Source: an uncultured Clostridia bacterium (GTDB taxonomy: Bacteria; Bacillota; Clostridia; TANB77; CAG-508). Taken from it: a stretch of DNA of 64,000 nt. The stretch spans positions 43,251 through 107,250 of the forward strand of contig CAQDYY010000002.1 in the NCBI GenBank assembly GCA_948777935.1, given 5' to 3'. Positions 6,816 through 28,894 of this stretch are shown piece after piece. Position numbers and translations under genes: made by a program. The notes under the pieces were generated by a model that saw nothing but the letters and a program-made list of their open reading frames with translations, searched no databases and was not told the DNA's origin. Positions within the stretch are counted from its first letter, which is position 1. Each line of letters starts with the position of its first letter.

Positions 6816-6853
6816 GCGCCATTAGCTCAGTTGGTAGAGCAGGTGACTCTTAA
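6816..6853 (+). pseudogene. 5' half of a host tRNA-Lys(CUU) gene, broken in the anticodon loop (attL side).
   Basis: GCGCCATTAGCTCAGTTGGTAGAGCAGGTGACTCTTAA followed by unrelated sequence. The acceptor 5' strand GCGCCAT pairs perfectly with ATGGCGC at 28884-28890. Confidence 0.85.
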
Positions 6854-6941
6854 ACAACTATTTTTCCAAGTGAACTAATGACACCAAAGCATTGATATAT
6901 ATATAATTTAACCACTCCAATAAATTATGACAAAAAAGCCA

Positions 6942-6964
6942 TTTACCCAACTTTACCCAAGTTT
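6942..6964 (+). promoter_or_regulatory. Two tandem arm-type repeats TTTACCCAA(C/G)TTT (putative integrase arm sites, attL side).
   Basis: Copies at 6942-6954 and 6952-6964. The same 13-mer recurs inverted at 7108-7120 and direct at 28667-28679 and 28688-28700. Confidence 0.55.
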
Positions 6965-6998
6965 TTAGGGTAAAACCCCAATAATTAAATATGTACAT

Positions 6999-7074
6999 GG
7001 GTGACTAGCTCAGTTGGTAGAGCAGCTGACTCTTAATCAGAAGGTCGAGGGTTCGACCCCCTCGTTGCCCACCA
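6999..7074 (+). tRNA. Element-borne complete tRNA-Lys(CUU), CCA encoded.
   Basis: Acceptor GGGTGAC/GTTGCCC, anticodon loop CT-CTT-AA, T-arm GAGGG-TTCGACC-CCCTC. The sequence differs from the split host tRNA at many positions, so it is not a hybrid. Confidence 0.9.
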
Positions 7075-7107
7075 TTTCAACGATTTTCCCACTTCGTGCT
7101 TCAAAAT

Positions 7108-7120
7108 AAAGTTGGGTAAA
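7108..7120 (-). promoter_or_regulatory. Inverted copy of the arm-type repeat.
   Basis: AAAGTTGGGTAAA is the reverse complement of TTTACCCAACTTT. Confidence 0.45.
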
Positions 7121-7172
7121 TCATTGACAGGAAAAAAGCTTATATAATTTACTTATATAAGCCTTTTTATTT

Positions 7173-8706
7173 TTAACTAGCCCTTTTATAAAATACATCA
7201 TTAAATACTTCTTGCATTTCTCTTTCTTTAATCTTTTTACTAACATTAACATAATATTTATGTGTGGTTTCAAAGCTAGAATGTCCTAAAATCTTCATCA
7301 ATACTAATTCTTTCATTCCTTTTTCATAACAGAATGTAGCAAAGCTGTGTCTTAAATCATAAGGATAAAATTTTTCTAGTTTATACTTGTCACACAATTC
7401 AGGGAATGCTGATGACAAAGTATCTGATACATAGGGTTTATATGTTCGACCTAAAAACATATAATCATCTTCCGACCATTTTCTGCCTTCATTCTTAAAC
7501 TTCCTATATGTTTTAAATCTTTGTTTTTGATTTTCTCTATGTTTTAGTAATATTTCAATTAGTCTAGGACACATTGGAACTGTCCTATATGATTCAGGTG
7601 TTTTTAAAGTAGCATCCGACCTATAATGTCCTATAACTTTGCCTTTTTCATTGTAGATATTAAAAGATTTGTAGGCATTATTTATAATTAACATTTTCTT
7701 TTCTAGGTCAAAACATTTCCATTTTAAACCACATGCTTCTTCAGGTCTTAAACCTGTGAGAAGTATTGTTTCCAAAAGGATTGACATATCAGTATTTTCT
7801 TTTTCAAACATATCTGAATAAATATGCTGTTTTTCAGTTTCTATACATCTGATTTCTTTTTCTATTGTTGCTTTTGGTTTTATAGGTTTCTTGACATCAT
7901 CAAAAGGGTTTTCAGACTTTCTGATTTTCTTTTTTAATATTGCATACTGAAATAATAATGAAAAAACTATGTATGTATTTCTTTTTGAATGGTATCCTTT
8001 AATGTCCTTCAATATGTTATTCATTACATCTGTTGTAATCTGTCTAAAATATAGAAGTTTGTTATTTTTCAGAACCGGCTCTATATATGTACTTAAAACC
8101 TTATGATACCCATCTATGGTCTTTTGACTTAAAGGATTAGGGTTTTCATCTGTTTTTTCACATAGTGATAATTCATAGTTTATCCAGTCTGTAAAAAAAT
8201 CTTCTATAAGATACATTTCATCTTCTTGTTTTTTAGTAATAACATTATCTAAACTTATATCATCATTATATTTATTAGTTAGTAATATTGGTGTATCTTT
8301 ATTAAATGCAATGTTCTGCATACCATTAAATGGAATAACATTACTAGGTAAAGTTATTTTATTTGTAAGATAAGCATTAATGTTTGTAACTTTATCTGCA
8401 ATTACTAATGATTTTTTAGTTAGCTCTGCTGATACTATTCCTAAGTTATTTATACTGCTAATGATTTTCTGTGGAATATGCTCATCTATTGTATAGATAA
8501 TAAGTCCATTATTAAAACTTGAATCAATATAACTTTCTAATTCTAATAGTAAATTAAAAACAGCTAATTCTTCAGTTTTACCGGCTTTTCTCTAATCTTC
8601 TTCGTACACCCCCTAATTTTACTGTCATCCTTGCTTGAATGTATTTATTATTGACTAATCTAACAGCTATTTCATAATAAGCTGTTCTTTCTTTTATTCT
8701 TTCCAT
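7173..8706 (-). CDS. int: Tyrosine integrase with N-terminal arm-binding-like extension. Contiguous with a +1 shift at CGG (8583-8581).
   Basis: Catalytic signatures LTGLRPEE, HDLRHSFAT, LGHSSFETTHKYY. ATG at 8706 with GGAGG upstream gives 41 codons ending ..EKS-CGG-TAA. The +1 frame (GGT AAA ACT..) is open for 87 codons with no ATG and runs into the annotated ORF at 8321. Confidence 0.85.
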
Positions 8707-26390: not shown

Positions 26391-26688
26391 TTTGTAACTC
26401 CTTATGTTTAAATTTTTGATTCAATAAATCTACTCTTTCTTGTAATGTGTAATTCTTCTCATCATTTATACTATTTTCTAAAATATAACTAACATTTGCA
26501 AGTAATGTTACGGATTTACTTAAAGCTGTTGCTACATATTCATAGTCTATATGATTTAACTCGGTTATACATTGCACATTAAAATTGATATTTTCAATAA
26601 TTCTTTCTAAATTTGCAGAGTTTCTTATAACATCATAATTTCCCTCGCGAATATCTTTCTTCAATTCATAGACCTTCATTAGCAACAT
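26383..26688 (-). CDS. Hypothetical protein (101 aa).
   Basis: ORF in the array. Confidence 0.35.
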   Translation of the reverse strand: MLLMKVYELKKDIREGNYDVIRNSANLERIIENINFNVQCITELNHIDYEYVATALSKSVTLLANVSYILENSINDEKNYTLQERVDLLNQKFKHKELQNG

Positions 26689-26801
26689 CTCCTATTATAT
26701 TTTTCTTATTCTATTAATATTTTACCAACAGAAAATAAAAAATAGTAACTTACATTTTTTATAAGTTACTATTCAAAATTTTGTGTTTCCTGTGTTTTCT
26801 G

Positions 26802-27830
26802 TTATCCTTTTATTCTTTTTATATCTTCCTCACTTAGTCCTGCTAGTCTTAGTCCTTCATCTGTATATCCATAATCAAATGCTTCTTTACATACTTTATC
26901 TGCAAATATATATTTATAGGTATCAAAAAACAAATTAAAACTTATTTTATTTTTCATTAAATTACCCATAGCTTTTAATATTCTTGCATTTCCTTTTAAC
27001 TCTCCTTCAAAATATTCAAAACTATCATAATCAAATATATGGTCGTAATAAACCTCTCCATAATTTGAAATATAATATCCACAGCCATTCATATCAGAGC
27101 TGTCATGACTTCCTTTATCTAAAATTTTCTGAAAGTCCTCATTCCAATTACATAGCCATTCTAAAACAAATACAGTTTTCCCACCTTCAACATCTGTTTC
27201 TGCATTAAATATTGTTCTTGATGGTGCTGTTAGTAAATCTCCTTTTTTAAATGGTGTAGGAATATTTAAACAAATTCCATCTGTTTCTGGATATTCATTT
27301 GTACTATATATATTTATTAGTTCTAGCTGTTTATTTTCTATGTTATATTTTTCTATAATTCTTATGCCATTTCTCTCTAAAGTTCTTTTTATTAGCTGTA
27401 TCTTTAATATTTCATTATCTGTATCCTCTTTTAATTCTTGATATAATGCCATACATACATCATCATAATTTTTATAAAAATTTTCACTTTCTTCAAATCC
27501 ATGTGAATATGAATTTCTATAACATATTTCATAAGTATAAATCATATTTTCAGATTCCGTTTGTATTTCTTTCCTTAAATCTTTTATTCTTTGGATTTCT
27601 TCTTGTATCATATCTTTTACACTATCATAGTGTTTACAATTCATTCTTTCAATTACTTCCATATCAGGATAATCTGATATTAGTTCTTGATATGCAGTTA
27701 TTTTCTCATCTATGCTCATTCTTTTATTTCTATAAATTAATACTGCCAGTTCTTCTGTATTAAATTGATGTTTTATCTTTTTGCAATGTTCTTGAATTGC
27801 TTTTGAATTGATTAAATTATATATATCCAT
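26802..27830 (-). CDS. Hypothetical protein (342 aa from ATG 27830).
   Basis: GGAGG lies 9 nt upstream of ATG 27830. The longer track start at 27860 would overlap the preceding gene by 26 nt. Confidence 0.45.
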   Translation of the reverse strand: MDIYNLINSKAIQEHCKKIKHQFNTEELAVLIYRNKRMSIDEKITAYQELISDYPDMEVIERMNCKHYDSVKDMIQEEIQRIKDLRKEIQTESENMIYTYEICYRNSYSHGFEESENFYKNYDDVCMALYQELKEDTDNEILKIQLIKRTLERNGIRIIEKYNIENKQLELINIYSTNEYPETDGICLNIPTPFKKGDLLTAPSRTIFNAETDVEGGKTVFVLEWLCNWNEDFQKILDKGSHDSSDMNGCGYYISNYGEVYYDHIFDYDSFEYFEGELKGNARILKAMGNLMKNKISFNLFFDTYKYIFADKVCKEAFDYGYTDEGLRLAGLSEEDIKRIKG

Positions 27831-27834
27831 TTTT

Positions 27835-28317
27835 TTATTCCTCCAATATTTTAAATTCATCTATTCCAACTGATAAACCTAAACTACTTCCATTCTCCCA
27901 GTTTACATGGATAGTTCCTATATCATCTACATATTGTACTATTCCTAATGTTCCTGTTGGTACTGGTGCAATTAAATCATACATCTTAACTAATTCTATT
28001 TTAGTTCCTGCAACATATTTTTCTCTTATGTATTTTATTTCTTCTTGTGTATGATTTTTCGTTTGACTTTGCTTATCTAATACTAAAATAATATCATCTA
28101 ATTCAGATACATCAATTATTCCTTCTAGTCTATCAGGACTTACTCTAACCTTTAGCTTTCCATCAAATTCTGTTATTGTTAATGTTTTGTATACATCTTG
28201 TTCTCCATCTCTATTGTATAAATATTCTAATGTCAAAGAGTTACCTGATATAATTAGATTTACTCTATCCATGTACTTATCTGCTACCTTTTTAACTACT
28301 TCAATTAAAAGTTCCAT
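27835..28317 (-). CDS. Hypothetical protein with a DUF4314-like C-terminal domain (recollection only).
   Basis: C-terminal GTLGIVQYVDDIGTIHVNWENGSSLGL resembles a domain common on Firmicute conjugative elements. Confidence 0.4.
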   Translation of the reverse strand: MELLIEVVKKVADKYMDRVNLIISGNSLTLEYLYNRDGEQDVYKTLTITEFDGKLKVRVSPDRLEGIIDVSELDDIILVLDKQSQTKNHTQEEIKYIREKYVAGTKIELVKMYDLIAPVPTGTLGIVQYVDDIGTIHVNWENGSSLGLSVGIDEFKILEE

Positions 28318-28666
28318 TTTATTACCCCCATTATAATCAAATTTAAACTATTTTATCTCTTTGGATATATAATTTGTTGTTTATTATTTTTAATTCCAAA
28401 CGTGCCAAACCTCGTAATGAAGTCCACCATTTAAAATTAAATCTACAACAAATTTTATACCAAAACATCTATCATCAAGTATTTACTTACGCAGTCAGTG
28501 AAGTAGCTTAACATATTAATTTGGATTTTGCAAATGTTTGATATTTAAGCATTATATAAAATAAGAAAACTGCTAAACAAATATTGATATTGTTTAACAG
28601 TTGTGATATTATAATAATCAATAGAATATTATTAAGTTTATATTATATAAGATTTATTCTAATATT

Positions 28667-28700
28667 TTTACCCAACTTTTGTGAATTTTTACCCAACTTT
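28667..28700 (+). promoter_or_regulatory. Two direct arm-type repeats TTTACCCAACTTT (attR side).
   Basis: Copies at 28667-28679 and 28688-28700, about 150 nt inside attR. Confidence 0.55.
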
Positions 28701-28847
28701 AAGGGATAATATAACACTATTTAAAATAATATAAACTTATTTAAGATAAGTATGAAAAATGTATATGTGTTGATTCTATTATGTTTGGTGTTTTTTTCTT
28801 AGAGTAATAACAATTTCAAAAATTACTCTAATTTTCAAAATGTGGTG

Positions 28848-28894
28848 GACTCTTAATCACAAGGTCGGAGGTTCGACCCCTCTATGGCGCACCA
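28848..28894 (+). pseudogene. 3' half of the host tRNA-Lys(CUU) gene (attR side).
   Basis: GACTCTTAATCACAAGGTCGGAGGTTCGACCCCTCTATGGCGCACCA. It completes the cloverleaf begun at 6816-6853. Confidence 0.85.

Follow-up and report, generated by a model that had tools for sequence, protein, structure and literature searches.

What becomes of a tRNA gene that a mobile element cuts in its anticodon loop and does not repair? The question is raised by a 64,000-nucleotide stretch of DNA from an uncultured Clostridia bacterium of the CAG-508 lineage (assembly GCA_948777935.1, contig CAQDYY010000002.1, positions 43,251 to 107,250), here called the window, in which two halves of a tRNA-Lys(CUU) gene lie about 22 kb apart and a second, complete tRNA-Lys(CUU) gene stands just inside the left junction. 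In our view a 22-kb non-phage element has split the host gene and very probably compensates for this by carrying a whole cognate tRNA gene in the P′ arm of its attachment site, attP.

Splitting of the host tRNA-Lys(CUU) gene

When nucleotides 6816-6853 are joined to 28857-28894, ARAGORN recognizes a 76-nucleotide tRNA-Lys(ctt) with a perfect GCGCCAT/ATGGCGC acceptor stem, A73, an encoded CCA and all stems paired, barring the usual 27-43 mismatch. The initial annotation had read the two segments as one cloverleaf split by about 22 kb, and the join bears this out; all of its coordinates hold. It had also placed the crossover in a 9-bp repeat over the anticodon loop, and this core, GACTCTTAA, indeed bounds the insert on both sides. 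The core spans positions 30-38 of the tRNA and so takes in the last two anticodon-stem pairs (5′ strand) and the entire loop, which places the target in the anticodon stem/loop and not at the tRNA 3′ end. Three copies are found in the 64 kb (6845-6853, 7028-7036 and 28848-28856), where about 0.8 would be expected by chance; the copy at 7028-7036 is the anticodon loop of the element's own tRNA.

Neither junction restores the gene. The sequence behind the attL core (ACAACTATTTT...) contains no tRNA 3′ half, and the same holds for every attL junction examined in the related loci described below. ARAGORN calls no tRNA at attL alone, in keeping with the earlier claim that nothing is restored there, and none at attR alone. 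Within the 64-kb window the program reports four tRNA genes: three at 1534-1800 (Lys-UUU, Glu and Thr) and the Lys-CUU gene at 6999-7074. The promoter assigned to the host gene, TTGACA-18-TATAAT, scored 12/12 and stands upstream of the orphan 5′ half, while the hairpin and T run beyond the displaced 3′ half are probably the original terminator of the gene.

Empty sites and the insertion boundary

We scanned GTDB genomes, one per species, with a junction-spanning 33-mer and obtained 38 loci. Eight of these, all in Clostridia metagenome-assembled genomes (MAGs; L003, L006, L016, L032, L037, L004, L013 and L026), match the left flank of the window, its right flank or both at 74-83% nucleotide identity. 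The left flank is a VanW/G5 gene (5123-6718); the right flank is CorA, followed by an ABC ATPase. An intact tRNA gene stands in these genomes behind the same consensus promoter. In five of them (L003, L006, L016, L032 and L037) it lies between the same flanking genes as the halves in the window, and 76 of its 76 nucleotides are identical to the joined halves. Aligned to the window, the empty-site genomes contain none of 6854-28847, and in L003 the left and right flank alignments meet over the 9-bp core. Because the empty sites lack the insert and keep the joined tRNA, and because the same core is found at both ends, the 21,994-bp insertion is real and neither a chance resemblance nor an assembly artefact.

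Such an intact site in a relative was the check proposed with the initial annotation, which had also named a finding that would speak against it, namely that 6854-6998 and the adjoining tRNA belong to the host and occur at empty sites. Both are absent there. This absence, together with the arm-type repeat TTTACCCAACTT that the segment has in common with the right end of the insert, assigns 6854-7074 to the element and not to the host.

A complete tRNA gene within attP

The complete tRNA-Lys(CUU) had been described as lying 145 nt inside attL in the orientation of the host gene, and ARAGORN calls it at that place and on that strand (Table 1). With one mismatch allowed, the 12-mer TTTACCCAACTT is present in five copies, which lie at the two ends of the element and to either side of the tRNA; 0.67 copies would be expected. 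The layout has the appearance of the arm-type sites of a lambda/Tn916-type integrase, and since these repeats flank the gene, the tRNA would sit within the P′ arm of attP. The inverted repeat after the tRNA is also found in L044, L054, L058, L062 and L064, and the right end of the insert is 77% identical to attR of a related element (L059). An AT-rich hairpin between the tRNA and int is a probable two-way terminator, serving both the tRNA transcript and int.

A further block, AACTAATGACACCAAAGCATTGATATATA (~6870-6900, 20-50 bp from the core), is conserved in L062, L064 and L098 at an integrase identity of only 54-57%; possible roles are an accessory-factor binding site or part of a promoter.

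A family of probable disrupt-and-replace loci

Relatives of the element were gathered through integrase homologues in a protein database with contig look-ups, and through two exact-match scans with the element tRNA; integrase peptide patterns gave one weak match only in the GTDB genomes. About 15 loci have the same layout: host promoter, orphan 5′ half, a spacer of 66-145 bp and a complete, co-oriented tRNA. Besides the window these are L044, L052, L054, L056, L058, L062, L064, L066, L068, L070, L071, L085, L089 and L090, and their integrases are 39-68% identical to that of the window. Behind the carried tRNA there is usually another inverted repeat, then a terminator and, on the opposite strand, int. 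In loci of the E1 type, 183-205 nt separate the start of the host half from the carried tRNA downstream of it. At least ten tRNA-Lys(CUU) alleles are represented among the orphan halves.

The family spacer contains two direct repeats and one inverted repeat. These vary with lineage (TTTACCCAAC, TTTCCCCAAT, TTTACCCAG, TTGCACCAG and TCGCACCAA) and change along with the integrase (L044, L052, L054, L056, L058, L062, L064, L066, L068, L070 and L071), as expected of arm sites that co-evolve with their own integrase.

The carried tRNA of the window recurs, identical at 76 of 76 positions, in L044, L052, L054, L056, L058 and L062, although in L052, L054, L056 and L058 the 3′ 46 nt were the search pattern and only the 5′ 30 nt were free to vary, which makes the 3′ part look more conserved than it may be; L044 and L062 were reached via integrase homologues, and there the match was unconstrained. 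The seven integrases concerned are 52-100% identical. Other elements carry seven further Lys-CUU sequences. In the eight distinct sequences 95% of the cells are paired and 12 of the 21 pairs have changed on both sides, a result that none of 500 shuffles matched, whereas slid controls pair at 34-46%. The part GACTCTTAATC is invariant. This pattern indicates that the carried genes are real tRNAs, kept as such by compensatory changes.

The anticodon of the carried tRNA follows that of the target. Fourteen Lys-CUU sites carry a Lys-CUU gene, and the one Arg-CCU site (L066/L067; ENA ERZ28613651, 11479-11900) has an orphan tRNA-Arg(CCU) half followed by a complete tRNA-Arg(CCU), with an integrase 51% identical to that of the window. 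For this reason we favor a replacement role over codon supply or a decoy. That the tRNA is instead cargo, used for AAG decoding of element genes or as a decoy or spare against anticodon nucleases, and that its match to the target is secondary, seems improbable. AAG does make up 23% of Lys codons in the element open reading frames (ORFs) and 16% in those of the host, and phage tRNAs have been proposed to counter tRNA-cleaving defences (PMC10865867, discussion). However, an Arg-CCU anticodon is carried exactly where the target is Arg-CCU, the tRNA always lies directly behind the split half in the same orientation, and the carried tRNA is in many cases identical to native host alleles or close to them, which would leave a decoy without gain. 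The two roles are not mutually exclusive.

Nested insertions and alternative readings of the locus

The carried tRNA is a live target, because insertions into carried tRNAs are seen at two places in the family. Four Logan contigs (L040-L043; SRR22600540/558/545/551) are 99.7% identical to window 7029-9013, which covers int and the 3′ part of the carried tRNA, and diverge exactly at the core in the element tRNA. A second element, E2, lies there in the anticodon loop of the carried tRNA; in L040 the junction at ~1986 corresponds to window 7028-7036. E2 is 80% identical to the element in L072, and in E2-type elements int adjoins attR (L072) and the element's own complete tRNA is at attL (L090). 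The integrase ORF of E2 looks frameshifted too, at a run of seven A. In the second case, L089 (CAOKJE010000030.1, ~6700-7900 in tRNA orientation), a carried GGGTGAC-type tRNA, known by the arm repeats that precede it, is itself split, and the inner element has its own spacer, a GCATCAC-type tRNA-Lys(CUU) and an integrase 47% identical to that of the window.

Nesting of this kind would allow a different history for the window, in which 6854-7036 would be a decayed relic resembling a cis-mobilizable element (CIME), the present element would have entered the tRNA regenerated by that relic, and the presence of the tRNA would be accidental. The three direct-orientation core copies and the true nested insertions (L040, L089) fit such an accretion, which we nevertheless consider very unlikely. 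The geometry of spacer and tRNA is nearly constant in about 15 loci whose integrases go down to 39% identity, a divergence over which a relic would not have kept a perfect tRNA. Moreover, the tRNA is flanked on either side by repeats that recur at the opposite end of the same element, and while the L040 junction is inside the tRNA, the element boundary in the window is 175 bp further left.

Ordinary tRNA-site integration, with 6999-7074 as the regenerated target and 6816-6853 as the leftover of an older, unrelated event, would agree with the position of int beside an intact tRNA and of a displaced 3′ fragment at the far end, as in canonical islands, but it retains next to no probability, as the perfect pairing partner of the 5′ fragment at 6816 is the 3′ fragment at 28894 and not 6999-7074, the 145-bp spacer bears the element's own arm repeats, and the empty-site alignments, with the exact joined tRNA, none of 6854-7074 and a boundary at 6853/6854, outside 6999-7074, rule it out. 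Just as hard to credit is a contig mis-joined at repeated tRNA sequence, for which the probable metagenome assembly source and the ability of tRNA halves to confuse assemblers could be cited, since the same exact core is present at both junctions, both flanks keep the gene order of the empty-site genomes, many independent assemblies show the attL architecture and 7029-9013 recurs, at the identity given above, in four Logan assemblies.

Expression of the carried tRNA and the need of the host

The element tRNA had been thought to lack an obvious promoter of its own. This does not hold, as the scanner finds an 11/12 site in the spacer (Table 1). With the same promoter rule applied to ten family loci, the 12/12 host promoter is present upstream of the orphan half in eight, whereas a promoter-like site in the spacer is found in three only (the window, L062 and L064) and is missing from seven. 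No terminator was seen in the family spacers, and the orientation of the carried tRNA and its distance from the host promoter are constant across the family. Since the host promoter is mostly kept and the internal site is rare, read-through from the captured host promoter is the best family-wide hypothesis for expression of the carried tRNA; in the window, transcription may also start from the internal site. The initial annotation had proposed that the element replaces the host isoacceptor and borrows its promoter. The replacement is strengthened by the cognate identity of the carried tRNA and by the tracking of the anticodon; promoter borrowing is the best conserved explanation, and we only infer it.

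Several observations weigh against replacement and promoter capture as we describe them. The near-consensus site at 6878-6907 means that host-promoter read-through is not needed in the window. A tRNA-Lys(UUU) gene lies ~5 kb away, at 1534-1609, and tRNA-Lys(UUU) species can usually read AAG, which accounts for 16% of Lys codons in the host ORFs; many bacteria do without any Lys-CUU tRNA. Most family loci come from MAGs, and the conservation of the carried tRNA is in part inflated by the search, as noted above. Finally, the junction of the excised circle (TGGTGGACTCTTAAACAACTA) had no match in IMG/VR or in JGI metagenome contigs. On the other side, the tRNA is retained strictly across the family. 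As to copy number, the 33-mer scan matches include no second identical copy in the MAG with L056, which has the same host tRNA. The host may depend on the carried gene for its fitness. The initial annotation had expected such dependence unless excision is precise, and excision by an integrase between identical cores is inherently so.

Origin of the carried tRNA and host range

About 12 Clostridia MAGs have the GGGTGAC-type tRNA as an ordinary chromosomal gene that is equipped with a consensus promoter and a terminator and has no integrase in its neighborhood, and in L049 it is native at the locus orthologous to that of the window. What the element carries is therefore an allele that other members of the clade have as their own gene. 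We considered whether native GGGTGAC alleles such as that of L049 could be decayed elements; no remnant of a spacer or an orphan half is found there, and the idea is unsupported. At native loci (L049, L045-L061), related Clostridia have either a GCGCCAT-type or a GGGTGAC-type tRNA-Lys(CUU) at what seems to be the same locus. The acceptor stems of the two types differ at 5 of 7 positions, and the alternation of alleles at one locus hints at lateral replacement of the tRNA gene.

A single carried tRNA sequence (76/76) is found with at least five host acceptor 5′ strands: GCGCCAT, GCACCAC, GCGCTAT, GCGTTAT and GGGTTAT. A canonical hybrid at this site would oppose the host GCGCCAT to the element GTTGCCC with two mismatches, and because the halves mispair at these positions a hybrid tRNA would be unworkable in the host of the window. 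Carrying the whole gene would free the two halves from the need to be compatible, so that the invariant loop would suffice as a target.

Proposed mechanism

These data can be combined in the following scheme. The element occupies the only tRNA-Lys(CUU) gene visible at the locus, where its lambda/Tn916-type integrase would have recombined attP with the host anticodon loop over the core. A 3′ tRNA segment is missing from attP, and the host gene is therefore left in two pieces, the 5′ half at attL and the 3′ half at attR. The complete, independently folding tRNA-Lys(CUU), flanked by arm-type sites and oriented as the target, would after integration come to lie about 180-198 nt downstream of the strong host tRNA promoter and be transcribed from there, in the window perhaps from the internal promoter-like site too; RNase P and 3′ processing would then release it. 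The demand on the target would be limited to the invariant part of the tRNA, GACTCTTAATC, and tRNA-Lys(CUU) genes with quite different acceptor stems could be entered for this reason, whereas hybrid halves could not pair. As each element would bring a fresh target, elements could insert into one another's tRNAs. In the window, where the integrase gene is frameshifted, the copy is probably stuck, and the element tRNA would now be the permanent Lys-CUU gene at the locus.

More tentatively, and with more doubt than confidence, we suggest that attP and the whole tRNA gene form one self-contained cassette that has four roles jointly. It would need the invariant anticodon loop only and so enter any tRNA-Lys(CUU) or tRNA-Arg(CCU) allele, irrespective of the acceptor stem; it would be without a promoter of its own and be switched on by capture of the host promoter at integration; it would place a fresh landing site in every element, leading to Russian-doll nesting; and, upon decay of the integrase, it would leave a foreign tRNA allele permanently at the native locus. 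If true, this would provide a route for lateral tRNA gene replacement and could explain the alternation of the GGGTGAC and GCGCCAT types among related Clostridia.

Comparison with known systems

The principle of disrupting a tRNA gene and replacing it is already established, and we claim no new mechanism. Guerrero-Bustamante and Hatfull (mBio 2024; PMC10865867) defined tRNA-dependent lysogeny for actinobacteriophages, mycobacterial phages included, by a tyrosine integrase, an attB inside a tRNA gene, a core too short (8-17 bp) for reconstruction and a phage-encoded cognate tRNA that viable lysogens require. Deletion mutants demonstrated the requirement, as did a comparison of int-attP plasmids that had the tRNA with others that had none. 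The phages of this kind are Fionnbharth/K4, Cluster L, Cain/K6, Gaia/X and the Gordonia CQ2 and DL phages, and several independent origins are listed (PMC10865867).

The window has all of these features that can be read from a sequence, but its element is not a temperate phage. Both systems combine a tyrosine integrase and arm-type sites with an attB in a tRNA gene and a carried cognate tRNA of the same anticodon; the core is short (9 bp here), and no tRNA is rebuilt at attL or attR. In both the trait is patchy and has evolved repeatedly, with lysine tRNAs favored. They differ in their hosts (Actinobacteria there, low-GC Clostridia here) and in their targets (Lys-UUU, Ile2-CAU and Leu-CAA there, Lys-CUU and Arg-CCU here), and the integrases are related in the catalytic fold only. 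Since no phage genes are recognizable here, lysogeny is not the right word. There the need for the tRNA was shown by experiment and here it is inferred, and nested re-targeting of carried tRNAs is seen in the Clostridia family. The tRNA gene of Fionnbharth is found at another place in the phage genome, where it overlaps gene 37, and a promoter of its own has been demonstrated (PMC10865867); that of the window is within attP, with arm sites on both sides and the host promoter immediately before it.

Outside the Actinobacteria, that paper names Lj965 of Lactobacillus johnsonii as a likely case (PMC10865867), and a later paper reports the same strategy for some Sinorhizobium prophages. According to these secondary descriptions, the target tRNA is not rebuilt and a cognate tRNA is carried, as here; Lj965, too, is in a Firmicute, but all of these are prophages.

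Classes of tRNA-gene integration by sublocation were reportedly set out by Williams in 2002, and are said to include crossover in the anticodon loop. Canonical islands (Islander, PMC4383910) share with the window a tyrosine integrase, an anticodon-loop crossover, int beside the end with the working tRNA and a displaced 3′ fragment at the far end. Their attP, however, carries the 3′ part of the tRNA and regenerates a hybrid gene, whereas in the window attP shares 9 bp with the target, a separate whole gene substitutes for it and an orphan 5′ half is left behind. In streptococci, integrative mobilizable and conjugative elements target the 3′ end of tRNA-Lys(CTT), and the gene stays intact. These resemble the present family as small non-phage elements of Firmicutes with variable cargo modules and the same landing tRNA gene; they differ in the 3′-end crossover and are not known to carry a complete replacement tRNA.

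A full-text literature search, made in a non-exhaustive library, found no paper describing this Clostridia element family. What differs here is the non-phage family, its presence in Clostridia, the isoacceptors concerned, the position of the tRNA in attP behind the host promoter and the nesting. A phage strategy is thereby extended beyond phages and Actinobacteria to an abundant, widespread and uncharacterized element family of animal-gut Clostridia, some members of which bear genes resembling tetracycline and macrolide resistance genes. Software for island detection that looks for a regenerated tRNA together with a displaced 3′ fragment will place such elements wrongly, and annotators will count the foreign tRNA as a host gene. 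Nesting means that the carried tRNA keeps the locus open to further elements. Because the cassette would need the anticodon loop only, it could underlie cross-species integration vectors for Clostridia.

Integrase and content of the element

The insert encodes a tyrosine integrase, an Xis-like helix-turn-helix (HTH) protein and a DnaB-like helicase, and no phage structural genes were seen (Table 1). An extra A in the run at 8586-8589 breaks the frame of int after codon 40, so that the gene is read as a 42-aa ORF (8578-8706) and a 382-aa ORF (7173-8321), whereas homologues of 490-520 aa align across the break. Four Logan assemblies of related samples show the gene split in the same way, and the frameshift is therefore probably real and not a sequencing error. 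Programmed frameshifting at A AAA A was considered; nothing supports it, and we treat the change as a mutation. Given the frameshifted integrase, the element in the window is probably immobile: a tyrosine integrase with arm-type sites characterizes the family and the past of this copy, but its present activity is doubtful.

In an AlphaFold2 model of a full-length integrase homologue, an N-terminal three-stranded sheet with a helix is followed by a disordered linker and by core-binding and catalytic domains; its best matches in the PDB are Tn1549 Int, XerH and lambda Int. The break in int falls in the third strand of the modeled N-terminal domain, which by analogy would bind the arm sites, although a Pfam search of the integrase N-terminus at E up to 1 matched no arm-binding family. 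The small HTH_17 protein encoded just upstream of int is a candidate excisionase, and a gene of this family precedes int in L044, L062, L064, L068 and L070 as well.

Neither Pfam nor PHROGs identified a capsid, portal, terminase, tail or lysis gene in at least 20 element ORFs. Among 50,697 phage records there was no relative beyond catalytic-domain similarity of 27-31%, and searches of IMG/VR with the element tRNA or with integrase peptide patterns found none. Plasmid records showed no meaningful similarity, the tRNA alone matching plasmid and chromid records, and the element tRNA together with its downstream motif had no match in metagenome or viral contigs. As there is no structural or lysis gene and no phage or plasmid relative, we classify the insert as an integrative element that resembles an integrative mobilizable element (IME) and not as a prophage.

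Table 1. Positions in the window of the split host gene, the predicted attachment-site elements and the genes of the insert.
Feature	Position	Strand	Basis or remark
Host tRNA promoter TTGACA-18-TATAAT	6771-6800	+	12/12 consensus; 198 nt upstream of element tRNA
Host tRNA-Lys(CUU) 5′ half, positions 1-38, attL core at its end	6816-6853	+	Identical in empty-site tRNAs L003, L006, L016, L032, L037
Element left end, putative P′ arm of attP	6854-6998	+	Absent from empty sites; arm repeats
Promoter-like site ATGACA-18-TATAAT	6878-6907	+	11/12; 91 nt upstream of element tRNA
Arm-type repeats, two direct copies	6942-6953, 6952-6963	+	89-99 bp right of attL core
Partial inverted arm repeat GGGTAAAA	~6972		Within 6854-6998
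Element-borne complete tRNA-Lys(CUU), GGGTGAC type, encoded CCA, A73	6999-7074	+	ARAGORN
Inverted copy of arm-type repeat TTTACCCAACTT between tRNA and int	7109-7120	-	Repeat scan
AT-rich hairpin between A and T runs	7132-7172	.	Read from sequence; GC-poor stem, no scanner call
Tyrosine integrase gene, +1 frameshift	7173-8706	-	Pfam PF00589
Small HTH_17 protein, just upstream of int	8816-9022	-	PF12728, E=2e-9
Element body	9542-28317	-	Many genes without assigned function
AAA_25/DnaB-like helicase	10162-11394	-	
Serine resolvase	15269-15976	-	
Two papain-like peptidases	within 9542-28317	-	
Ribosomal protein S6 homologue	24888-25172	-	PF01250, E=2e-30
DUF4314	27835-28317	-	
Two direct arm-type repeats TTTACCCAACTT, putative P arm of attP	28667-28678, 28688-28699	+	160-181 bp left of attR core
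attR core (28848-28856), then displaced host tRNA 3′ half ending CCA	28848-28894	+	ARAGORN join, empty sites
Hairpin and T run, downstream of host 3′ half	28917-28957	+	Read from sequence

The ribosomal protein S6 homologue, odd cargo for a mobile element, is also present in the related element L062 (1181-1465). The cargo of L066/L067 includes a reverse transcriptase and a DNA methylase. L068/L069 (GCA_948507325.1, GCA_949066515.1; 2485-6593) encode a Tet(M)-like GTPase of the elongation factor G (EF-G) family (640 aa) and an Erm-like rRNA adenine methyltransferase, possible antibiotic-resistance cargo. At 11800-11886 (minus strand) of L068, ARAGORN reports the orphan 5′ half and the adjacent spacer as an 87-nt "tRNA-Lys", probably a false call that shows the risk of mis-annotation at such junctions.

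To the right of the insert, about 0.9 kb (28896-29822) separates the 3′ half of the host tRNA from corA and contains a 209-aa ORF (28999-29628, minus strand) that matches no family. The empty-site genomes L003, L006 and L016 lack this segment, and in other relatives its place is taken by unrelated DNA of about the same length; the spot is variable and is perhaps the scar of earlier elements.

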